From an uncultured Candidatus Saccharibacteria bacterium (GTDB taxonomy: Bacteria > Patescibacteriota > Saccharimonadia > UBA4664 > CAYXHD01): a DNA stretch of 30,537 nt. The stretch's first letter is position 1. Each line of letters opens with the position of its first letter. A program made the translations under genes and the position numbers. This document shows positions 11,301 through 25,216 of the stretch, piece after piece. The notes beneath the pieces were generated by a model. The model made no database searches and was not told the DNA's origin. It was given only the letters and a program-made list of their open reading frames with translations. The stretch is from assembly GCA_964410005.1 (NCBI GenBank), contig CAYPFI010000001.1, positions 1 through 30,537 on the forward strand, written 5' to 3'.

Positions 11301-11747
11301 CTATTTTTGATTCTTAATTTCGCGGGCGATGTCGCGTTGCGTTTGGCGGGCTTTTAAGACGGCACGCTTGTCGTATTTTTTTTGTCCGCGGCCAAGACCG
11401 ATTTCTAATTTAACAAGCCCGCGTGAAATGCCAATGGCCAATGGCACGGCCTGTACGTTGGCGTGCTTGGCGGCGATGATTTCGTCGAGCTGTTTTTTGT
11501 GGACGAGAAGTTTGCGTGGGCGTGTGGGGTCGTAGTCGCCATTGGCCGAACTATTGGCGTATTTGCGAATGTGCGCGCTTACTAAGTAAGCTTCGCCGCC
11601 ACGAATACTAACATAACTGCCTTTGAGGCTGACTTCGCCGGCCTTGGCGCTTTTGACTTCGGCGCCAGACAACACTAAACCAGCCACTATTCGTTCATCG
11701 ATAGCGTAATCATAGGTTCCGCGCTTGTTTTTAGCTACGATTTTCAT
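11301..11747 (-). CDS. smpB: SsrA-binding protein SmpB
   Basis: N(K/R)xA..Y.I...AGLVLSGAEVKS, DPTRPRKLLVH, KLEIGLGRGQKKYDKR and a basic C-terminal tail. Confidence 0.97.
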   Translation of the reverse strand: MKIVAKNKRGTYDYAIDERIVAGLVLSGAEVKSAKAGEVSLKGSYVSIRGGEAYLVSAHIRKYANSSANGDYDPTRPRKLLVHKKQLDEIIAAKHANVQAVPLAIGISRGLVKLEIGLGRGQKKYDKRAVLKARQTQRDIAREIKNQK

Positions 11748-11793
11748 GCTTACATTATACCTTATAGGGGCCTATATCTGATATAATTGGCCT
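11748..11793. promoter_or_regulatory. 46-bp bidirectional promoter region for smpB and argS
   Basis: Minus TATAAT (11759-11754) plus 6 nt to the smpB ATG; plus TATAAT (11782-11787) plus 6 nt to the argS ATG. Central palindrome TATAGG-GG-CCTATA (11763-11776). Confidence 0.7.
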
Positions 11794-13386
11794 ATGGTTA
11801 CCCAAAAACTCAATTCTGAGCTCTCAAAACTGATTAAAAGCACCTTTGATCTGGACATTACGCCTGATCAGGTTCAATTTATGCCTGCAGAGGAGCAGTT
11901 TGGCGACTTCGGCACCAGTGTTGCTCTCCAGTTGGCTGGTCGATTAAAGCAGAATCCCCGAGAAATTGCTCAACAACTAGCTGATTCCTTCGAGAGTGAA
12001 GTTGTAGCCAGGGTTGATGTAGCTGGGGCTGGATACCTAAACGTCACGCTAAAAGAGGATTACTGGAAGACGGTTCTATCTGATATTAACGCTGATTATG
12101 CCAAAAATGACCTTGGTAAGGGTCAAAAAGCCCAAGTTGAGTTCATTTCTGCTAATCCCACCGGCCCAACGACTATTGGTAACGCCCGCGGCGGCTTTAT
12201 TGGGGACGTACTCAGTAATGTATTGGCCCAATCTGGCTATCAGGTTACACGTGAGTATTACTTTAATAATGCTGGCACCCAGATTAGCAAGCTTCTTGAG
12301 AGTATTAAGATGGAGGCTGGCTTGCTTCCTGAGACAGAAGAGCGCCAGTACAGGGGAGAGTACATCGAGAAGATGGCTGCCCAGTACAAAGAAGAGCTCT
12401 CGAGTAAATCAGATGAAGAATTAGCTACTTTAATTACGACTCATATCTTAAGAGAATACATTGAGCCAGCCGTTTCCTCGATGGGAATCACCTTTGATGA
12501 GTGGTTTAACGAGAAAACAGTCTTAGAAGATGGTAGTTTTGACGCTACTATCGAGAAATTAAAGGCGTTAGACCTGGTATTTGAGCGCGATGGAGCTGTT
12601 TGGCTCAATACCGGCAAGCTCGGTGATGAGCGAGAAGAGCGCGTTATTATTAAAAGCAACGGCGATCCTACCTATATGGCACCGGATATTGCCTATCATG
12701 CCAATATCTTTGGAAAACGTGACTTTGACTACGCCATAAAGGTGTTGGGCCCTGACCATATTGCCCAATTCCCGTCGGTAAAAGCTGCCGTTATGGCGTT
12801 ATATCCAGATAAGCGCCTCGAGATGGCGGGTTATCAATGGCTGCGCCTGATGAAGGATGGCAAGGAAGTAAAGGTTAGTAAGCGATTGGGCCAGTTTGTT
12901 ACGGTTCAAGATCTGATAGATCAGGTTGGCGTAGGGGTAGCTCGTATGCTCATCCTGATGCGCTCCAGTAACAGCATGATGGACTTTGATCTGGACTTGG
13001 CGCGCCAACAGAGTAACGAGAACCCTTACTACTATGTAATGTACAGCTATGCGCGTGCTTGCTCGCTCTTAAATAAGGCTAAAGAGGCTGGTTTAGAGCC
13101 TGGGACGAAGCCAAATGATCTTGATGTAAATGATGTGCGTTTGATAAAGGCTTTATCTGATTTGCCTACGGAAATTCCTGAAATTACCGCTGATTATCAA
13201 GTTCATAAGCTGGCCTTTATGGCGCATGAGTGGGGCAAAGCCTTCCATGACTATTATGAAAGCGCTCGCATTCTTGATATGGAGCCCGAAGCAGCCGGTA
13301 CGAAGCTGCTCGTTATCGAGAAATATAAAGTGGCGCTTGAGGTGCTGCTCGGGATTCTCGGTATCGAACCTGTCTCCTCTATGTAG
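11794..13386 (+). CDS. argS: Arginine--tRNA ligase
   Basis: FGDF/AGAGYLN N-terminal motifs, VEFISANPTGP, REYYFNNAG, SNGDPTY, KVSKRLG, and ENPYYYVMYSYAR anticodon-binding domain. Confidence 0.97.
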   Translation: MVTQKLNSELSKLIKSTFDLDITPDQVQFMPAEEQFGDFGTSVALQLAGRLKQNPREIAQQLADSFESEVVARVDVAGAGYLNVTLKEDYWKTVLSDINADYAKNDLGKGQKAQVEFISANPTGPTTIGNARGGFIGDVLSNVLAQSGYQVTREYYFNNAGTQISKLLESIKMEAGLLPETEERQYRGEYIEKMAAQYKEELSSKSDEELATLITTHILREYIEPAVSSMGITFDEWFNEKTVLEDGSFDATIEKLKALDLVFERDGAVWLNTGKLGDEREERVIIKSNGDPTYMAPDIAYHANIFGKRDFDYAIKVLGPDHIAQFPSVKAAVMALYPDKRLEMAGYQWLRLMKDGKEVKVSKRLGQFVTVQDLIDQVGVGVARMLILMRSSNSMMDFDLDLARQQSNENPYYYVMYSYARACSLLNKAKEAGLEPGTKPNDLDVNDVRLIKALSDLPTEIPEITADYQVHKLAFMAHEWGKAFHDYYESARILDMEPEAAGTKLLVIEKYKVALEVLLGILGIEPVSSM

Positions 13387-17784: not shown

Positions 17785-20700
17785 GTGAAAAAATTGCGCA
17801 AAATAATTCGTCAAGAAGTCGCCACTCTGCCCCGACAGAGTATTGCAGCCATGAAGGTGGCTTTTGGCGTACGTGCACAATACGCCACTATCATGGCACT
17901 GGCCGTACTCATGGCCACGCAAATTGCTGGGGTCGCAATATTCTCTGGGAGAGCCGCCGCGGCCTTACCATCACTTAGCCTGGAGCTCGAGACGCGAGAA
18001 GTCAGTGATGTGAACGTTAGTTATCAAAATAGCGCCAATCTAAAATTTAATCTACACACAAATGACCTCCATAACCTCAAGGGTGCTGCTTATAGCTTTG
18101 AATATGGTAGTACTACGAGTTATGGTGAAGAGGCTAATGTCGAATCTACCCAAGTTGTCAGGGACTCAGAAATGTCATTCTCTGGCGGCCCAACCTATCA
18201 ATATGGGGGCTATGGCCAGACCAAGGACCATCAAGGAAATATCTATAAGATATACAACGGAAATCTCTACAAATATAATTCGGCGGGTCAGTACCTCTTA
18301 CAGGTGACGGCTACTCCTAATCATTTCCAGGGATCATCGCGCGCTGATTTAGTGTTTGATTCACAGGATAACCTCTATGTCGGGGGATTTGGCGGTGTTA
18401 TTGAGAAGTATTCGCCAAGTGGTAATCTACTGAACACCATAGGGTCGGCTACTTACATTCAGATTGCTACTGATCCGGATGATAATCTTTATGTGGTCGA
18501 ACAGCGGACGGTCAGTGGCTCGCTGGTTCATAAATACGATGCCGCGGGTGCGCTTGTGGATGAATTTGTGATGCCGATTGGTACCGCAGTTCTGTGTGGT
18601 GGAGATTTAGCGATAGACTCCGCCGGGAGCCTTTATGTGAGTATTTCTGATTGTGATTCCCAAACATCAGACTCGATTCAAAAACTCTCTTCAGATGGGA
18701 ACCTCACTGATACCTGGGCCATACCGGTTGCCGGTACATTATACATAGATGACAGTAATATTATTTATGTTCGTGGTCAGGCCACACTTACGACTGAGGG
18801 TGACCCAATCCCGTCACCGGCTACTTTGCCCCTAACTTCATATATGCTGGGCTACAATGTACTGCTTGATGTAGACACCGAACATGGCTTGGCCCATATG
18901 ATGAATCGCGACGAGAATGTGGTAATAACCTACGCTCGTACGGCTTCAGTCGAGGTAGGTAATCTTCAATGTGGTGAAACCTATCATTACCGAGCTAAGG
19001 CCGTTGCCGGAAGCGAGACGGTATACGGTGAAGATCAAGAGACTATCGTTCCTTGTAATCCCCTCAACATTCTAACCGGCTGGATTCCAGATGGTCCGCT
19101 CGGTGAGGCCTATGAGGCACAGATACAGACAAATGCTTCTGGTGGAACAACAACCTTTAGTATCGTTGATGGGCAACTTCCGCCCGGCCTTGATCTGGAC
19201 AGCAGCAGCGGCGCGATAACGGGAACCGCGATTGAGGCCGGCAGTTTTGAGTTCACGATTCGCGCAGAGAATGACGGCGCGAATACTCCGGGAATCGATG
19301 AACAAACATTATCCATGTATGTCACGGGGCAGAACTTGGATGTGGTTGATAGTAATAACAGTATGTATGTTGGGGACGCTTATACTAATCAGGTCCAGAC
19401 TACTGGCGGACTTGGGGGCGAGATCCAGTTTGGGAAAGATCCAAGTTCCAATGATGATTTCCCGCCCGGCATCACTATGAGTAGTACCGGCGCGATAACT
19501 GGCACGCCTACCCAGGCTGGGTCGTATGCTGTGCTCGTACGTGTCACGCAAGGGCCACTCACCGGCGTTGGTTATGTACAATTCCAGGTAGAGAACCCGA
19601 CTTATAATGAGATTAGTATCTCGGGTGGAGGGCTTAATGGTGCGCGAGTGGGCCGTGCTTATAGTGAGGACATGGGTTACTATACTGGTAATGGCTTTGG
19701 ACCAAAAACCTATGCTATTACAGCAGGTGAGTTGACGCCAGGGCTCGAGCTCAATCCGCTCACCGGTATCATTAGCGGGACACCTGTGACGGCGGGAACG
19801 TATGAATTTACCCTGGAAGTAACCGATATCACAGGTAGTGCGAGTGGTGAGTTTACTATGCCGGTCGCGCCGACGGTTGTTCAGGGTACCAATACGCCTA
19901 TTGTTACGATTACCTCGCCAGCCGATAGTACTCAGTTTGATGCCGACCATGATAGTGTTGTCGTCACCGGTACCGGCCCGGCTGGCCAGTCGATTGTGGT
20001 ATCGATGGATGGCTATGAGCTAGGAACTGCCTCTGTTAACGACGGCGGCACCTGGAGCTATACGGTGGATGATATATTCCCGGGAGATCATAGTTTTGAG
20101 GCTAAATATGTGCCAGTTGGTGATCTTGCGGTATTGGGAAGCCTTGTGGACGGTGATATGACTGCTGAAAATGGTAAAGTCACAATTATCGATATGGGTA
20201 CCGGCAAAAGGATCCAGTCCATCTCACTCCCGCCATACTCATTTGTGTATGTATCGGCCATCAATGAGGCCGGCACCAAGGCCTATGTGGCTGGTGGACG
20301 ACTCAACTTAGACGAGGTCGGAGATGGTGCTGTCTCTACGCCATTCTTGTATGAAATTGATCTTGGAACTGGCATGTTGGGTCGCACTTTGGACATGTCG
20401 TCAATTGGCCCCGATCACACCGTTAGTGCCCTTACGCTTATTAATGATCATACAGCGTATATCGAGTATGGACGTAGCTATTTAGAGTCAGCCATCACAT
20501 CGGTGAATCTGGATACCATGACACTTGGCAGCTCCGTAGGTCTTCCCCTAAGCAATGATTACACGGTAAGTAATAATCCCCGAGGTCGAAATATATCGCT
20601 GGTCGAAGCCAATGGCCGAATATACAGCTCATTATCCACACAGGATGATGATGACTTGCAAACCGCTACGGTTATTAATCGATCAGATAACTCAATGCAT

Positions 20701-21915
20701 AGCATTACAATTCTCAATGACCCGTTATGGTATAACTGCGCAACTGAAGTTATTAAGTCCGGTAACGATGTTTATTATGTGGCCAATGATAAGATCGTTA
20801 AAATGAACACTACTAACGGCACTGTCGCGAGCACTATTACCATGGGCAGCACCTTGCAGAGTACTCAGATGTGTGTGAGGTCGCTCCAGATAGATGCGGC
20901 CCATAATAAAGCCTACGTGCTCGCCAACGGTGTGTTGTTTACGGTGGACTTATCGAGCGGGGCGACTACCAAGGTTCAGGATCAGGTCGGGTCTCTGTAT
21001 ATCAATGCTTGGGTGGATACGTACATTGATTGGATGAAGCAGCTGCAGCCTAACCAAGAAATAACTGATGAGCTGAGGCAAATGTTCTTTGACCAGCTAA
21101 GTAATAGTTTGCCAACATCGCTTCCGTATCAACAAAGTAATCTCATGTCACTTAACAGTGATGCCAGTATGCTTCATATTTTCTGGATGACAGGTATTAT
21201 CAGTAATTTTAACACCGTTACTTCTCAATATGTTCAATCTACACAGAGTTACTATGGCTACGCTGGATATAGCATACAGTCTGGCGCTCAGCGCTTGGTC
21301 GCGCCGGCTACCGTTTCGCCTTCAGCTTCAGTTTCGTTTTCAGTAGAGGAGGGTGAAATTGTGGAACCGGGCTGCGTTGATGATTCGTGCGAACCGGTTG
21401 ATCCCGATTGTCTTGAATCATGTGAGCCAGAAGAGCCTGGTGAGCCAGAGTTGCCAGGAGCTATTGTGCCGCAGTTGACTCCTAAGCCTGTTGTCGCAAC
21501 CACGCCCATCAAAGGATCTCCGGCGGTTGTGGCTGTTCAGAACTCACTCTTGGCGCTCGTGGCTCGCATTCCCGAACCACTGGCTGTCGGCTTGCCATGG
21601 CTCCTGTTGTCGCTGGCTCTCATCCTGGTTTCATCCCAGTATTATCAGGTCCTTGCTGAATCGGCTGGAACCAAGAAAATGCAGGATCGCGTCGATCATC
21701 AAAGGCGACTTGTAGAAGAACAGAATAACTTTGTGGCTCTTTCGACTCACTATCTGCACACGCCACTCACCGTTATGGAGGGGGAAATTAGCTTGATGGT
21801 TAAAGCTGGAACACTAACTCAGGCCCAGGCAACTAAGCTGCGAGCAACGCTTACTAGTCTAGCTGCCGAAGCTGAGGCCGTACTCGCACGAGAAGAGCAG
21901 AATAAGGTAGAATAG
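17785..21915 (+). CDS. Large membrane-anchored surface protein (1376 aa): FN3-like domain, NHL-like propeller, three He_PIG-like Ig repeats, Big-like domain, second propeller, TM helix, cytoplasmic coiled coil and HisKA-like helix
   Basis: FEYGSTTSYG...TYHYRA; FDSQDNLYVG/TDPDDNLYV/IDSAGSLYV repeats; LPPGLDL..GAITGT, FPPGITM..GAITGTP, LTPGLEL..GIISGTP; PIVTITSP..GTWSY; TM LPWLLLSLALILV; NNFVALSTHYLHTPLT. Confidence 0.85.
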   Translation: MKKLRKIIRQEVATLPRQSIAAMKVAFGVRAQYATIMALAVLMATQIAGVAIFSGRAAAALPSLSLELETREVSDVNVSYQNSANLKFNLHTNDLHNLKGAAYSFEYGSTTSYGEEANVESTQVVRDSEMSFSGGPTYQYGGYGQTKDHQGNIYKIYNGNLYKYNSAGQYLLQVTATPNHFQGSSRADLVFDSQDNLYVGGFGGVIEKYSPSGNLLNTIGSATYIQIATDPDDNLYVVEQRTVSGSLVHKYDAAGALVDEFVMPIGTAVLCGGDLAIDSAGSLYVSISDCDSQTSDSIQKLSSDGNLTDTWAIPVAGTLYIDDSNIIYVRGQATLTTEGDPIPSPATLPLTSYMLGYNVLLDVDTEHGLAHMMNRDENVVITYARTASVEVGNLQCGETYHYRAKAVAGSETVYGEDQETIVPCNPLNILTGWIPDGPLGEAYEAQIQTNASGGTTTFSIVDGQLPPGLDLDSSSGAITGTAIEAGSFEFTIRAENDGANTPGIDEQTLSMYVTGQNLDVVDSNNSMYVGDAYTNQVQTTGGLGGEIQFGKDPSSNDDFPPGITMSSTGAITGTPTQAGSYAVLVRVTQGPLTGVGYVQFQVENPTYNEISISGGGLNGARVGRAYSEDMGYYTGNGFGPKTYAITAGELTPGLELNPLTGIISGTPVTAGTYEFTLEVTDITGSASGEFTMPVAPTVVQGTNTPIVTITSPADSTQFDADHDSVVVTGTGPAGQSIVVSMDGYELGTASVNDGGTWSYTVDDIFPGDHSFEAKYVPVGDLAVLGSLVDGDMTAENGKVTIIDMGTGKRIQSISLPPYSFVYVSAINEAGTKAYVAGGRLNLDEVGDGAVSTPFLYEIDLGTGMLGRTLDMSSIGPDHTVSALTLINDHTAYIEYGRSYLESAITSVNLDTMTLGSSVGLPLSNDYTVSNNPRGRNISLVEANGRIYSSLSTQDDDDLQTATVINRSDNSMHSITILNDPLWYNCATEVIKSGNDVYYVANDKIVKMNTTNGTVASTITMGSTLQSTQMCVRSLQIDAAHNKAYVLANGVLFTVDLSSGATTKVQDQVGSLYINAWVDTYIDWMKQLQPNQEITDELRQMFFDQLSNSLPTSLPYQQSNLMSLNSDASMLHIFWMTGIISNFNTVTSQYVQSTQSYYGYAGYSIQSGAQRLVAPATVSPSASVSFSVEEGEIVEPGCVDDSCEPVDPDCLESCEPEEPGEPELPGAIVPQLTPKPVVATTPIKGSPAVVAVQNSLLALVARIPEPLAVGLPWLLLSLALILVSSQYYQVLAESAGTKKMQDRVDHQRRLVEEQNNFVALSTHYLHTPLTVMEGEISLMVKAGTLTQAQATKLRATLTSLAAEAEAVLAREEQNKVE

Positions 21916-21926
21916 GAAGCGCACGT

Positions 21927-22002
21927 CAGGGTGTAGCGCAGTTGGTAGCGCGCAGCGTTCGGGACGCTGAGGTCGGAGGTTCAAGTCCTCTCACCCTGAC
22001 CA
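21927..22002 (+). tRNA. tRNA-Pro (anticodon CGG)
   Basis: Acceptor CAGGGTG/CACCCTG (C1-G72, A73), anticodon stem CAGCG/CGCTG with loop TT-CGG-GA, TTCAAGT T-loop, encoded CCA; 76 nt. Confidence 0.97.
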
Positions 22003-22023
22003 TTATTCCTGTATAATAGAAGC

Positions 22024-23067
22024 ATGGTGGAAGTGCTTCTTATTCTTATGATCGTTCTCTTGTTGGCTGGTTTTGCTGGCATCCTCTTTATGATTAATCA
22101 AAATAAGAAGCCAGTGCAGAATGATACTGCATTAGGGCTTATCAAGGCTGATTTGCAGGCTATGAAGGATGCTATTGATCGCAGTAGCCAGCAGACCCAG
22201 AGCAGTGTATTTAAACAGATCTCAGAAAGCAGCAAGATCATTACCGATGTCACTGATCGACTGGCTAAGCTGGACGAGACTAACCGCCGTGTGGTAGATG
22301 TGGCCGATGAACTCAAAACGTTGCAAAATGTACTACAGAACCCCAAGCAGCGCGGGGTACTGGGAGAGTATTACCTCGAGACGGTCCTTGATAATGTGAT
22401 GGCACCTGATCAGTACCAATTGCAGTATGAGTTCAAGAATCACGACAAAGTCGATGCGGTGATTTTTTTACAACAGGGTAAAGTGCTGCCGATTGATAGT
22501 AAGTTTAGCCTTGAAAACTACAATCGTCTCCGAGAATCCAAAGATAAATCCAACAATGAGAACTTAATTAAGTTATTCAAGCAGGATCTTAAGAATCGTA
22601 TCGATGAGACGGCCAAATACATCCGTCCTGATGAGAACACCATGGACTTTGCTTTTATGTTTATCCCAAGTGAAGCCATCTATTACGACCTTCTGATTAA
22701 CCAGGTAGGTACGACTGGTACAAGCGCCCGCGACCTCATCGAATATGCCTTCCGAGATAAGCATGTGATTATTGTAAGTCCTACATCATTCATGGCCTAT
22801 CTCCAGACAGTGCTACAGGGCCTTAGGAGCTTACAGATTGAAGAACAGGCTAAGGAGATCCAGAAGCGAGTAGGGCAGCTTGGAACTCATCTAGCGGCTT
22901 ATGACACGTATTTTAGTAAGGTAGGTAACTCCTTATCAACTACGGTTAATCACTATAACACCGCACACAAGGAACTTGGCAAGATCGACAAGGACGTAAT
23001 GCGTATTGCGGGGACAACCCCTTCAATTGAGCCGCTGTTGGTTGATAAGCCGAGCACTGACGAGTAA
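22024..23067 (+). CDS. rmuC: DNA recombination protein RmuC
   Basis: N-terminal TM helix and coiled coil, NPKQRGVLGEYYLE, DAVIFL...IDSKF, FAFMFIPSEAIY, IVSPTSFMAYL. Confidence 0.92.
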   Translation: MVEVLLILMIVLLLAGFAGILFMINQNKKPVQNDTALGLIKADLQAMKDAIDRSSQQTQSSVFKQISESSKIITDVTDRLAKLDETNRRVVDVADELKTLQNVLQNPKQRGVLGEYYLETVLDNVMAPDQYQLQYEFKNHDKVDAVIFLQQGKVLPIDSKFSLENYNRLRESKDKSNNENLIKLFKQDLKNRIDETAKYIRPDENTMDFAFMFIPSEAIYYDLLINQVGTTGTSARDLIEYAFRDKHVIIVSPTSFMAYLQTVLQGLRSLQIEEQAKEIQKRVGQLGTHLAAYDTYFSKVGNSLSTTVNHYNTAHKELGKIDKDVMRIAGTTPSIEPLLVDKPSTDE

Positions 23068-23076
23068 GATATAAGC

Positions 23077-24057
23077 ATGAGCAAACGTATTATTTCCGGC
23101 ATCAAACCAACAGGTAGCCTGACCCTGGGGAATTATCTTGGCGCTATGCGTCATTGGGCGCCATTACAGGAGAAGGGCGAGGCTCTGTACTTTATTGCCG
23201 ACCTCCATGCCCTTAACGATAGACCAAAACCAGAAGATATACGTAGCCAAACGCTTGATATGGCGGCCTGGTTGCTAGCGACTGGAATCGATCAAGAGAA
23301 TATTTTTGTGGAGAGCCAGGTGCCGGCCCACGGTCAGCTCCAGACCATCCTAAATAACTACGTCACCATGGGCGAACTGAGTCGTATGACACAGTTTAAA
23401 GATAAGAGCTCTAAAAAGGGTGCAGAGGGTCAGGTGGCCGGTTTGTTCGAATATCCGGTACTGATGAGCGCCGACATTCTTTTGTACGATATCGACCTGG
23501 TCCCTGTTGGTGATGATCAGCGCCAACACGTAGAGCTGACGCGTGACATTGCTACGCGCTTCAATAACCTTTATGGCGAGGTATTTACGGTTCCATCCGC
23601 TGATATTCAGAAGGAATCAGCTCGTATTATGAATCTGCAGGATCCAGCTCGTAAGATGAGTAAGAGTGATGCTGATAATGGGGGCGCTATCTATCTTCTT
23701 GATACTGAAGATGAGGTTAAGAATAAGATAAAGCGTGCAGTGACTGATTCGGGTAGCTCAATTGAGGCCGACAAGGATCGTCCGGCGATTTATAACCTGG
23801 TTCAGATATTCGCAGCCGTTACAGGTAAGAGCAGTGAAGAGGTCGTTGAGCAGTTCGCAGGTAAGGGCTACGGGGACTTTAAGCAGGAGCTAGGCAGCGC
23901 AGTAGCGGCGAAGGTGGGAGAAGTGCAAGAGGCCTTCCATAATTATCGTAATGATGAGAATAAGCTCCAGGAGATCCTGGCAAAGGGTGCAGCTAAAGCC
24001 AATGATCGAGCTGAAGCAAAGCTGAAAGAAGTGAAGAAGGCAGCAGGATTACTGTAG
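23077..24057 (+). CDS. trpS: Tryptophan--tRNA ligase
   Basis: SGIKPTG.LTLGNYLGA, IADLHA, MTQFKDK, YPVLMSADIL, VPVGDDQRQHVEL, KMSKS. Confidence 0.97.
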   Translation: MSKRIISGIKPTGSLTLGNYLGAMRHWAPLQEKGEALYFIADLHALNDRPKPEDIRSQTLDMAAWLLATGIDQENIFVESQVPAHGQLQTILNNYVTMGELSRMTQFKDKSSKKGAEGQVAGLFEYPVLMSADILLYDIDLVPVGDDQRQHVELTRDIATRFNNLYGEVFTVPSADIQKESARIMNLQDPARKMSKSDADNGGAIYLLDTEDEVKNKIKRAVTDSGSSIEADKDRPAIYNLVQIFAAVTGKSSEEVVEQFAGKGYGDFKQELGSAVAAKVGEVQEAFHNYRNDENKLQEILAKGAAKANDRAEAKLKEVKKAAGLL

Positions 24058-24102
24058 GATCCGGAACACTTAACCTTCGGAAGTCTGATATATCTTTTAT
24101 AT

Positions 24103-24137
24103 AAATAGTTAACCGAGAGGTTAACTATTTGTTTTTT
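24103..24137 (+). terminator. Intrinsic terminator after trpS
   Basis: Perfect 12-bp stem AAATAGTTAACC/GGTTAACTATTT with a GAGA (GNRA) loop, then G and T6. Confidence 0.8.
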
Positions 24138-24266
24138 ACTGATGGGGCAGATGGAGAGGTTAAGTACGGCTAAAAGCTTAACAACGTTGTGAATAATACA
24201 CACATGATATATCAGTATATAGGATATACGTTGATTATTTTACAACATATATTGCACTCAATAGCA

Positions 24267-24296
24267 TTGACACAAGCATAAGTACTATGCTATGCT
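24267..24296 (+). promoter_or_regulatory. Near-consensus sigma70 promoter with no protein gene immediately downstream
   Basis: TTGACA (24267-24272), 18-nt spacer, TGcTATGCT (extended -10; TATGCT 24291-24296). Confidence 0.6.
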
Positions 24297-24302
24297 TCTT
24301 AT

Positions 24303-24590
24303 GTAGTCGAAACAAGCAGCTTCACAACAGAATAGTTCCTCTCCCGCAAGCTCAGACTTTCCAAAAGAGACCTGAGGTCCATACTCATGTCTAGTACCTG
24401 TCCGATTCATCGTTCTGTCCAGTTCCGACCCTCGTCCCTCGTCGTTCCCAGGTTTACGGTAGGGCAAGTCCCGCTTAGAATTATCCCCCTTAATTCTAAG
24501 CCGGGCTCGTCCTACGGTAGATACATCTTGTCGGTAGGGACGTGATCACAACCGCACCTCCTCTGTGATTACATCTCTACCGGCTAGGCC
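24303..24590 (+). ncRNA. Candidate structured non-coding RNA, family not recognised
   Basis: Follows the 24267 promoter. Long hairpins at 24459-24515 and 24530-24584 whose non-Watson-Crick pairs are G.U on the plus strand; small hairpin at 24351-24376; no convincing ORF. Confidence 0.5.
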
Positions 24591-24671
24591 ATGCTCGCGT
24601 ATATTTTATTAATAGCGTGGTGTGGTGGGTAGACACCATCATTTTACTTTTACGGCTTTCTTTCCGGCTGT

Positions 24672-24744
24672 AGGAGTAGACCATGCGGGCCGACAAGCGC
24701 CAATGTAACAACTATTTGGGTGGATTCGCCGGCCCGCAACTTCT
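24672..24744 (+). other. Long interrupted hairpin upstream of a terminator (candidate small RNA or leader element)
   Basis: TGCGGGCCG (24684-24692) pairs perfectly with CGGCCCGCA (24730-24738). Extended by AGGAGT/ACTTCT across a 6-nt bulge. Confidence 0.45.
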
Positions 24745-24759
24745 TTTATAACGTTCTCG

Positions 24760-24787
24760 AAGAGACCATCGCCAGTGGTCTTTTTTT
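24760..24787 (+). terminator. Intrinsic terminator 45 nt upstream of the membrane protein-pheS-pheT operon
   Basis: AAGAGACCA/TGGTCTTTT stem with a 7-nt loop and T7 tract (24781-24787). Confidence 0.75.
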
Positions 24788-24832
24788 ATTGGGATAATTT
24801 TGACATAATAGAGAGAGAAAGTTCGAGGTGTT

Positions 24833-25216
24833 ATGACATTACAAGGAGTCAGTCGGGCAGGTATAGCCTTGGTCTGTAGCGGCCTGGTGGTCGCATTGCT
24901 TTTGAGTATGGCGATAACGAGTCCCACTAAAATTGGCCCTGCAGGAGTGACGCTATGGTTCATGGGCTTTTGGGTGGTGCTATCGAGTTGTATAGCGTTT
25001 GTTAATTATGAGCTGGTAATGCGCTTTGGTAGAGAAGCCACTAAGGTTAATGGACACAAGGTAAAGGCGGGAAGTGCGCGTCATGGATTATTGTTGGGGG
25101 GTGCCCTGACGGTTATCTTGGCTTTGAGTAGTTTGCAACAACTTGACCCTCGTGATGTTGGATTGATAATTGCCTTTGTGCTACTGGTTGAATTTTATAT
25201 GAGGACACGACGATGA
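24833..25216 (+). CDS. Hypothetical integral membrane protein (127 aa, about 4 TM helices), translationally coupled to pheS
   Basis: Four hydrophobic segments; GAGGTG upstream; ATGA overlap with the pheS start. Confidence 0.75.
   Translation: MTLQGVSRAGIALVCSGLVVALLLSMAITSPTKIGPAGVTLWFMGFWVVLSSCIAFVNYELVMRFGREATKVNGHKVKAGSARHGLLLGGALTVILALSSLQQLDPRDVGLIIAFVLLVEFYMRTRR

Follow-up and report, generated by a model that had tools for sequence, protein, structure and literature searches.

A putative new family of structured non-coding RNAs, about 490 nucleotides long, between trpS and pheST in a subclade of Candidatus Saccharibacteria

The region between trpS and the pheS/pheT operon of an uncultured Candidatus Saccharibacteria bacterium (assembly GCA_964410005.1, contig CAYPFI010000001.1, positions 1 to 30,537; this whole stretch of 30,537 nucleotides (nt) is referred to as the window) very probably carries an independent gene on the plus strand that specifies a highly structured non-coding RNA (ncRNA) of ~490 nt, which possesses a near-consensus promoter and an intrinsic terminator and represents a new family in a subclade of the Saccharibacteria. 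A first-pass annotation of the same DNA had flagged an unannotated, structured plus-strand RNA of ~290 nt at this place. Such an RNA is upheld by the folding energy, the conservation and the covariation described below; its length and 3' boundary had been misjudged, since conservation runs past 24590 through three further helices to the terminator at 24761-24787, and the flagged part constitutes the first 60% of the unit.

The RNA is inferred to start 5-9 nt past the -10 box, near 24301-24305, and to end in the terminator near 24787. The promoter boxes (TTGACA at 24267-24272 and TATGCT at 24291-24296), which had been described as near-consensus, match at 10 of 12 positions and form the best promoter-like site in 23900-25000; TTGACA and TGnTAnnnT, with a spacer of 17 or 18, are kept across all the homologues, the distant forms included. 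The terminator stem carries compensatory C-G to U-A changes among the homologues. This site is absent from the program-made list of terminator-like sites, though both the hairpin and the U-run are present. Another terminator-like site, at 24622-24642, was rejected as a conserved 3' end because the homologues have no U-run there. The plus strand of 24295-24600 folds with -96.5 kcal/mol (z = -5.17 against dinucleotide shuffles) and the minus strand reaches a z of -2.57. The wobble pairs had been noted to be G.U on the plus strand, and at least 13 such pairs prove to be conserved, all of which the minus strand would read as A.C mismatches. Thus, the conserved promoter, the covarying terminator and the conserved G.U pairs identify the plus strand as the transcribed one.

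The secondary structure was predicted from an alignment of the window with its close homologues, three at first and then seven. The consensus obtained for this long form of the RNA (Table 1) comprises 110 pairs, which are 98.3% paired and include 11 with compensatory changes, and none of 500 shuffles was as good. Block B, the signature of the family, is a long hairpin around the core helix CTTAGAATTA/TAATTCTAAG. In its nine distinct sequences, 14 of 26 pairs have changed on both sides and 95.7% of the cells are paired, a value reached by none of 500 shuffles and far above that of slid-partner controls as well; the apical loop UCCCCCU is invariant in all nine. Hairpin H2 shows a compensatory U-A to C-G change in two sequences, and the conserved 5' block forms a short hairpin in which 24318-24322 pair with 24348-24352. 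The second family-wide element, Block C, covaries at 4 positions of its outer stem (10 sequences) and takes the general form GCGGGCCG-aCAAGCGCCAA...GCCGGCCCGC, with a U-rich tract or a terminator after it. In the homologue L089, CUUUCUUUUU lies directly 3' of Block C, which appears to serve as the terminator there. The family core predicted from these comparisons is Block B with its invariant UCCCCCU, one to three lineage-specific hairpins and the Block C 3' hairpin GCGGGCCGaCAAGCGCCAA...GCCGGCCCGC.

The two long hairpins proposed by the first-pass annotation, at 24459-24515 with the core and the TCCCCCT loop of Block B and at 24530-24584 with the loop AACCGCACCTCCTCT, are present as claimed; their C-rich and anti-Shine-Dalgarno-like loops are conserved and predicted to be unpaired, and the covariation of the hairpins is strong both in the long form and in Block B. 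A third one, at 24351-24376, does exist in the window but is not conserved, being the product of an insertion specific to the window. It was also considered whether the UCCCCCU loop forms a kissing or pseudoknot interaction with the G-rich side of Block C; this was rejected, as no register across the lineages was seen by eye and a U-to-C change in the putative pairing is not compensated. In a wastewater contig of run X5, Blocks B and C are kept and 144 nt of the window (24524-24667, H2-H3) are replaced by 144 unrelated nt, which suggests that the middle domain is replaced as a module from one lineage to another.

Homologues were gathered through the membrane protein encoded next to the RNA (72 protein clusters) and through DNA patterns, which yielded the RNA from about 12 distinct relatives; almost always it lies a short way downstream of trpS. 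The long form, of ~470-510 nt, includes the window, L081-L083, L085-L087, L100 and L102, and the divergent forms, of ~310-520 nt, include L088, L089, L093, L090/L091, L095/L097/L098, L105 and L106/L107. A strong TTGACA promoter, Block B and Block C are common to all of them. A covariance model of Block B (R1) gave one plus-strand match per matched locus, with E-values of 1e-12 to 1e-19, and no match in the trpS loci of other Candidate Phyla Radiation bacteria, Chloroflexota and Firmicutes. The RNA was not found beside trpS in L054 and L067, both from metagenome-assembled genomes (MAGs) labelled Saccharibacteria, nor in the Patescibacteria locus L040. The blocks of the RNA are 88-98% identical to those of L081, an uncultured Candidatus Saccharibacteria MAG, and thereby exceed the flanking genes, the neighbouring membrane protein being 64-67% identical.

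Exact-pattern scans gave matches in one genome and two metagenome contigs, L081 being the sole species-representative genome with the exact hairpin core. A locus search based on TrpS returned only relatives of at most 51% identity from other phyla, and one based on the membrane-protein alignment a single MAG. A degenerate Block C pattern retrieved L093 and two chance matches in GC-rich coding DNA; the same pattern found no match in viral contigs, and BLAST found none in phage and plasmid collections. The locus L093 (DATIHE010000064.1) is binned as 'Candidatus Nanoarchaeia archaeon' and carries an RNA of the Saccharibacteria type. Its open reading frames (ORFs), judged by size alone, fit the order trpS-RNA-membrane protein-pheS, and it is probably a mis-binned bacterial contig.

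The RNA corresponds to no described family. A search of the window with Rfam 15 (4227 models) at gathering thresholds returned only a tmRNA and two tRNAs, all outside the RNA. At E<=10, the region 24040-24860 matched only mir-1267 (20.6 of 70 bits) and isrD (18.2 of 37 bits), the latter merely through the terminator hairpin and U-run, and six homologous loci searched at E<=5 gave only istR (E 0.4). As the first-pass annotation had foreseen for a novel RNA, neither the RNA nor its homologues match a relevant Rfam family, and full-text literature searches found no description of the family. We regard it as a new family of a known general kind, the trans-acting structured bacterial ncRNAs, with a modest chance of something more unusual.

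The adjacent genes are separable from the RNA. In L088 and L089, trpS and the RNA are separated by an opposite-strand PilZ gene; in L090 and L091, a peptidase gene, also on the opposite strand, stands between the RNA and the membrane-protein/pheS operon; and in L095, L097 and L098 the RNA is followed by a His_Phos gene, which is on the same strand in L097. In addition, the operon has its own -10 box upstream of the membrane-protein ATG at 24833, and the core of 24801-24832 is nearly invariant in the long-form homologues. Therefore, the RNA is an independent gene rather than a leader or a 3' untranslated region.

Table 1. Positions of the RNA, its elements and its surroundings in the window, and identity of the corresponding segments to the homologue L081
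Feature	Positions	Strand	Remarks
Palindrome ACAACGTTGT	24181..24190	.	perfect, operator-like; ~115 nt upstream of RNA start
Inverted repeat CGTTGAT-N5-TACAACA	24229..24247	.	just 5' of the -35 box
Promoter, sigma-70-type	24267..24296	+	TTGACA, 18-nt spacer, TG-extended TATGCT
Whole RNA, ~490 nt	24301..24787	+	5' end inferred; 3' end in the terminator U-run
5' block GUAGUCGAAACAAGCAGCUU...CCCGCAAGCUC.GACUUUCC	24303..24357	+	conserved; long form only, absent from distant forms
GUCCGN(N) repeat tract	24358..24450	+	length-variable, weakly structured; ~54% identity to L081, with indels
Possible closing helix around B, H2 and H3	24444-47 / 24627-30	+	from the long-form consensus
Block B	24454..24520	+	long hairpin, ~26-27 predicted pairs; apical loop UCCCCCU 24484-24490
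Hairpin H2	24527..24587	+	-30.6 kcal/mol, z = -5.07; loop 24550-24563
Hairpin H3, GCCAUGCUCGC / GCGUGGUGUGGU	24588..24626	+	AU-rich loop; 10 pairs, one compensatory change
Hairpin H4, ACUUUUACGG / CUGUAGGAGU	24646..24677	+	loop of variable length; 10 pairs, one compensatory change
Block C, GCGGGCCG-ACAAGCGCCAA...UUUGGGUGGAUUC-GCCGGCCCGC	24684..24738	+	then U-rich tract
Intrinsic terminator	24761..24787	+	stem 24761-24769 / 24775-24783; seven T at 24781-24787
Start of downstream operon	24801..24832	+	extended -10 box TGACATAAT 24801-24809, purine-rich leader, Shine-Dalgarno GAGGUG 24825-24830; outside the RNA
RmuC	22024-23067		flanking ORF
TrpS	23077-24057		flanking ORF
Multi-pass membrane protein, 127 aa	24833-25216		flanking ORF; no Pfam family
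PheS	25213-26217		flanking ORF
PheT	26217-28523		flanking ORF
Identity to L081, flanking coding DNA			about 70-80%
Identity to L081	24301-24350		94%
Identity to L081	24351-24450		about 54%
Identity to L081	24451-24600		88-94%
Identity to L081	24651-24850		86-98%

Contigs that match Block B at 100% identity and the neighbouring blocks at 85-95% occur in many wastewater, freshwater and gut metagenomes and in several RNA-seq runs, and the sequence of the window itself was found in bioreactor metagenomes. The RNA runs include a small fish-gut metatranscriptome and an oligo-dT sludge library. Their contigs are consistent with transcription of the RNA and prove neither its strand nor its ends, because they are unstranded and some of them run past both ends.

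The first-pass annotation had counted 13 TCC against a single GGA in 24337-24561, and these counts are exact. The probability of at least 13 TCC in composition-matched shuffles is 0.0035, and the segment has the most extreme TCC-minus-GGA excess among the 225-nt stretches of the 30.5-kb window. The excess is caused by degenerate tandem GUCCGN repeats at 24358-24450, with 4-8 copies of GUCC, or up to 10 of the looser GUYC, mostly 5-8 nt apart. GTCC is enriched in each of the six analysable long-form homologues (P<=0.005), and no GGAC motif occurs in their repeat tracts. The repeat motif is kept while the sequence of the tract varies, a pattern characteristic of a multivalent binding platform. 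The distant forms are without the GUCCGN tract and have other low-complexity single strands in its place, which are CA-rich in L097 and L105 and consist of CACCU repeats in L090.

As regards function, we tentatively rank first the possibility that the RNA acts in trans through exposed pyrimidine-rich elements, capturing ribosome-binding sites or serving as an anti-Shine-Dalgarno (anti-SD) decoy. Rigid helices would hold out the UCCCCCU loop, the CCGCACCUCC loop, which carries the 16S anti-SD core, and the GUCCGN tract of this lineage as single strands; these would bind purine-rich partners, most likely the Shine-Dalgarno (SD) regions of the minority of leadered mRNAs, and would thereby lower the translation of those mRNAs in a genome that looks mostly leaderless. 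Two features put this reading first, the conservation of the anti-SD motif and an architecture of the SD/anti-SD kind. In eight long-form sequences, the H2 loop GCACCUCCUCU is invariant and holds the 8-nt anti-SD core CACCUCCU (24555-24562), which is predicted to be unpaired. The motif CCGCACCUC, which contains the 16S anti-SD core, is likewise predicted to be unpaired in L090 and L107, where the helices cannot be aligned with H2, and over seven forms the anti-SD 5-mers number 31 against 16.7 expected (P about 0.009). Complementarity to the 16S 3' tail is found in the 5' arm of H2, UAGGGACGUGAUC (24535-24547); as UAGGGAnGUGAUC, this arm pairs with 12 of the 13 3'-terminal 16S bases, one G.U included, and in the comparison with the whole E. 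coli rrn operon this antisense match scores best (30; shuffle mean 22.3, maximum 28). H2 thus reads as an intramolecular SD/anti-SD-like helix capped by a second copy of the anti-SD, given the complementarity of its arm and the motif in its loop. An SD/anti-SD-like hairpin also follows Block B in L093 and L105. The homologues do not conserve the continuation of the H2 complementarity into 16S helix 45, and this continuation is therefore given no weight. Same-sense mimicry of the 16S 3' domain (AGUCGaAACAAG, ACGGUAGGG and GAUCAC..CACCUCCU, in 16S order) was rejected as not significant, so that only the antisense match stands out: its local score of 20 is reached by 16 of 500 shuffles, other window regions score alike, and the sense score against the whole rrn operon is 24 for a shuffle mean of 22.3.

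The genomic context of translation is in keeping with the first-pass annotation, which had supposed many mRNAs to be leaderless: in many window genes a TATAAT box ends 6-9 nt ahead of the ATG and an SD is missing (for example 11748-11793, 22010-22023 and 28555-28572), and the membrane-protein/pheS operon adjoining the RNA is one of the few SD-led units in the window. The divergent gene pair 11301-11747 (minus strand) and 11794-13386 (plus strand) has a common 46-nt intergenic region, and both genes look leaderless.

Several observations weigh against an action on ribosome-binding sites. With up to two mismatches allowed, the window holds 6 target sites for the UCCCCCU loop against 7.9 expected, and the sole perfect one is the complement of the loop itself. 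The anti-SD-like motifs are weak or absent in L093 and L088, none was found by eye in L105, and the SD-like arm of H2 is locked in a 20-bp helix. NCGGAC, the complement of GUCCGN, is not SD-like, which suggests a protein as the partner of the repeats. Paired and unpaired parts are both highly conserved over ~490 nt and hence more typical of ribonucleoproteins (RNPs) or tertiary-structured RNAs than of base-pairing small RNAs (sRNAs). Finally, the RNA-seq evidence consists of assembler contigs that carry no strand information, some of them extending beyond the RNA on both sides.

A close second, owing to the repeat tract and to the high conservation of paired and unpaired sequence, is the explanation that the GUCCGN tract and/or the invariant loops bind a protein, so that the RNA would be a protein sponge or an RNP scaffold in the manner of CsrB/RsmZ, 6S or OLE RNA; taken by itself this is rather unlikely. 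The repeat motif and its copy number (4-8 GUCC, mostly 5-8 nt apart) are kept in a tract that varies in sequence and length and is predicted to be weakly structured, stems and loops alike are very highly conserved (e.g. UUAGAAnnAUCCCCCUUnnUUCUAA), other lineages have different single-stranded tracts (CA-rich in L097 and L105, CACCU repeats in L090), and the size and ornate architecture fit an RNP. However, no candidate protein was identified and no protein gene was observed whose presence follows that of the RNA, and the repeats cannot represent the family-wide function because the tract is restricted to the long-form lineage. Ribosome-binding-site capture and protein binding are not mutually exclusive. 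A bolder and fairly improbable proposal is that of a large Saccharibacteria-specific RNA with both halves of the SD/anti-SD interaction, the SD-like arm that pairs 12 of 13 with the 16S 3' tail and an exposed anti-SD copy; it could be a dedicated controller or decoy of 30S initiation in a bacterium of mostly leaderless mRNAs, maybe within an essential OLE-like RNP that stands in for protein regulators lost from the reduced genome.

The RNA lies directly upstream of the membrane-protein/pheS/pheT operon in most lineages, one RNA-run contig (X24, 24691-24858) crosses the terminator into the ORF, and the CACCUC of the H2 loop is complementary to the operon SD GAGGUG, all of which would suit a cis-acting leader, either T-box-like or a protein-binding attenuator, with regulated terminator read-through. 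T-box leaders and this RNA both adjoin aminoacyl-tRNA synthetase genes and share a helix/7-nt bulge/helix with UGGA followed by a terminator, and UUUGGGUGGAUUCGCC loosely resembles the T-box sequence. The T-box reading is nevertheless rejected, and a cis-acting role as a whole is very improbable: the Rfam T-box model was not matched, even at E<=10, Block C has its bulged helix in mirror image of the T-box antiterminator, with the bulge on the opposite strand, and finds its pairing partner in upstream sequence, the terminator being a hairpin of its own, a specifier loop was not identified, and the RNA does not always stand directly upstream of a synthetase gene. Moreover, the peptidase gene intervenes in L090 and L091 and another gene stands 3' of the RNA in L095, L097 and L098, the operon owns a conserved extended -10 box, and the terminator is a strong hairpin with seven U. 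More improbable still is a highly derived housekeeping RNA (RNase P RNA, signal recognition particle (SRP) RNA or 6S RNA) missed by the covariance models. For a complete Nanosynbacter genome, no more than 2 ncRNAs are reported by the NCBI annotation pipeline (PMC8830319), so that one of the trio would be undetected there on the assumption that tmRNA was counted. The single copy, the strong promoter, the very high conservation and an RNase P RNA-like size also accord with this idea. Against it, the RNase P, SRP and 6S models found no match (window at E<=10, homologues at E<=5), the fold is multi-hairpin and not a 6S-like rod with a central bubble, and two further MAGs with a Saccharibacteria label showed no such RNA downstream of trpS. 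As read from the homologue sequences, Blocks B and C also lack the universal P4 strands of RNase P (GGAAAGUCC, ACAGAAnCCGGCUUA) and the SRP helix-8 motif, and an RNase P reading based on GGAAAGUC was discarded, this sequence being on the minus strand of the 5' block, wrongly positioned, confined to the long form and without a model match. The first-pass annotation had further pointed to an opposite-strand reading as a GGA-rich sponge of the CsrA/RsmA type. On that strand the repeat tract does read NCGGAC, which contains GGA, and there is a weak promoter-like site (9/12, minus strand 24834-24805). A functional minus-strand transcript of this kind (CGGAC) is extremely unlikely, given that the plus strand carries both the conserved consensus promoter and the terminator with its covariation, that the conserved G.U pairs would be lost as A.C mismatches, that the minus-strand fold has the weaker z quoted above, that the program-made site list contains no minus-strand terminator after the region, and that the 24834-24805 site falls on sequence conserved as the plus-strand promoter and leader of the following gene; GGA occurs 3 times in the 496-nt plus-strand RNA, once in 24337-24561, and is frequent only on the minus strand. 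It is equally hard to credit that the locus has no RNA function and is a small coding gene, a remnant of a mobile element or a DNA-level signal. Two program-predicted ORFs do overlap it (24387-24545, plus strand, 52 aa; 24285-24467, minus strand, 60 aa), but they are not conserved, their indels are not multiples of three and their stop positions differ; substitutions track base-pairing and not codon periodicity, the element is syntenic with a single plus-strand model match per matched locus, and the phage and plasmid collections contain no match.

By analogy, the RNA would resemble RNAIII, RsaE/RoxS and/or CsrB in its proposed way of working and the ornate OLE-type RNAs in its look. The sRNAs with C-rich loops (hairpins 7, 13 and 14 of S. 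aureus RNAIII; RsaE/RoxS) likewise present unpaired UCCC-type motifs on stable hairpins, the counterparts here being UCCCCCU and CACCUCCU, which are conserved among the relatives; in both cases an independent gene has its own promoter and intrinsic terminator, and RNAIII, with about 514 nt, is of similar size. The differences are that the present RNA has no homology to these sRNAs (negative Rfam search), comes from another phylum, is much more conserved overall, has in addition the GUCCGN tract and a helix formed by an SD-like and an anti-SD-like arm, encodes no peptide and has no known targets. With CsrB/RsmZ it shares many copies of a short motif, the number and spacing of which vary among relatives while the motif is kept, but the motif is GUCC(G) and not GGA and resides in a single-stranded tract instead of hairpin loops. 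OLE, ROOL, GOLLD and raiA are likewise large, multi-helix, lineage-restricted and highly conserved, the present family being about 0.3-0.6 kb; as ole is followed by oapA, the RNA usually stands just upstream of a gene for a small multi-pass membrane protein. However, it matches none of their Rfam models, and the membrane-protein gene is apart from the RNA in L090 and L097.

Saccharibacteria and other ultra-small episymbionts have genomes of ~1 Mb with few recognisable regulators. With a length of 0.3-0.5 kb, a conservation higher than that of its essential aminoacyl-tRNA synthetase neighbours, clear covariation and a near-consensus promoter, the present RNA joins the small number of candidates for RNA-level regulators or RNPs in the group. 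A preprint of 2022 on the TM7x transcriptome states that no small RNA has been validated in that strain (bioRxiv 10.1101/2022.03.25.485537). If the anti-SD- and SD-like elements do engage ribosome-binding sites or the 30S subunit, the RNA would exemplify control of an SD-led minority in mostly leaderless translation. The seed alignment and the covariance model provide a ready family for the annotation of Saccharibacteria genomes, and since some cultivated Saccharibacteria are now genetically tractable, the RNA is open to testing there.

Two symmetrical elements precede the promoter (Table 1). The palindrome ACAACGTTGT occurs as a single exact copy within the window and may have a regulatory role; the homologues carry similar ACAAC/GTTGT elements at the same place. 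The inverted repeat next to the -35 box, a candidate transcription-factor site, is kept throughout the long-form homologues, and L089 and L090 have it as well. Conserved ACAAC/GTTGT palindromes are thus found upstream of the RNA promoter, and in an AT-rich lineage a related ...TTAATTACAACAA element precedes the membrane-protein/pheS region; besides the two window sites, elements of this group were noted in L097 (2130-2150) and L099 (2125-2150). Such elements may constitute a shared operator of some transcription factor.

The membrane protein downstream of the RNA has roughly 4 helices, and its stop codon overlaps the pheS start (ATGA). Its family, represented by the 72 clusters mentioned above, was seen here only in contigs of the Saccharibacteria type. 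The protein of the window is catalogued as an 84-aa product, and the conserved N-terminus MTLQGVSRA supports the 127-aa start. The PheRS beta subunits of L088, L089, L095, L096, L099 and L105 are about 890-940 aa long with precomputed matches to PF00877 (NlpC/P60), some of them weak, a domain insertion that is unusual for an aminoacyl-tRNA synthetase; the PheT of the window has 768 aa and no NlpC/P60.

The Rfam matches elsewhere in the window are the tmRNA at 469-847 (95.5 bits), a tRNA with a long variable arm at 922-1003 and, immediately ahead of rmuC, a second tRNA at 21927-21999; Rfam found neither an rRNA nor an RNase P or SRP RNA in the window. Two ORFs are very large, one of 2036 aa on the minus strand (1561-7671) and one of 1376 aa on the plus strand (17785-21915), the latter containing He_PIG and bacterial Ig-like repeats and likely being a surface protein.

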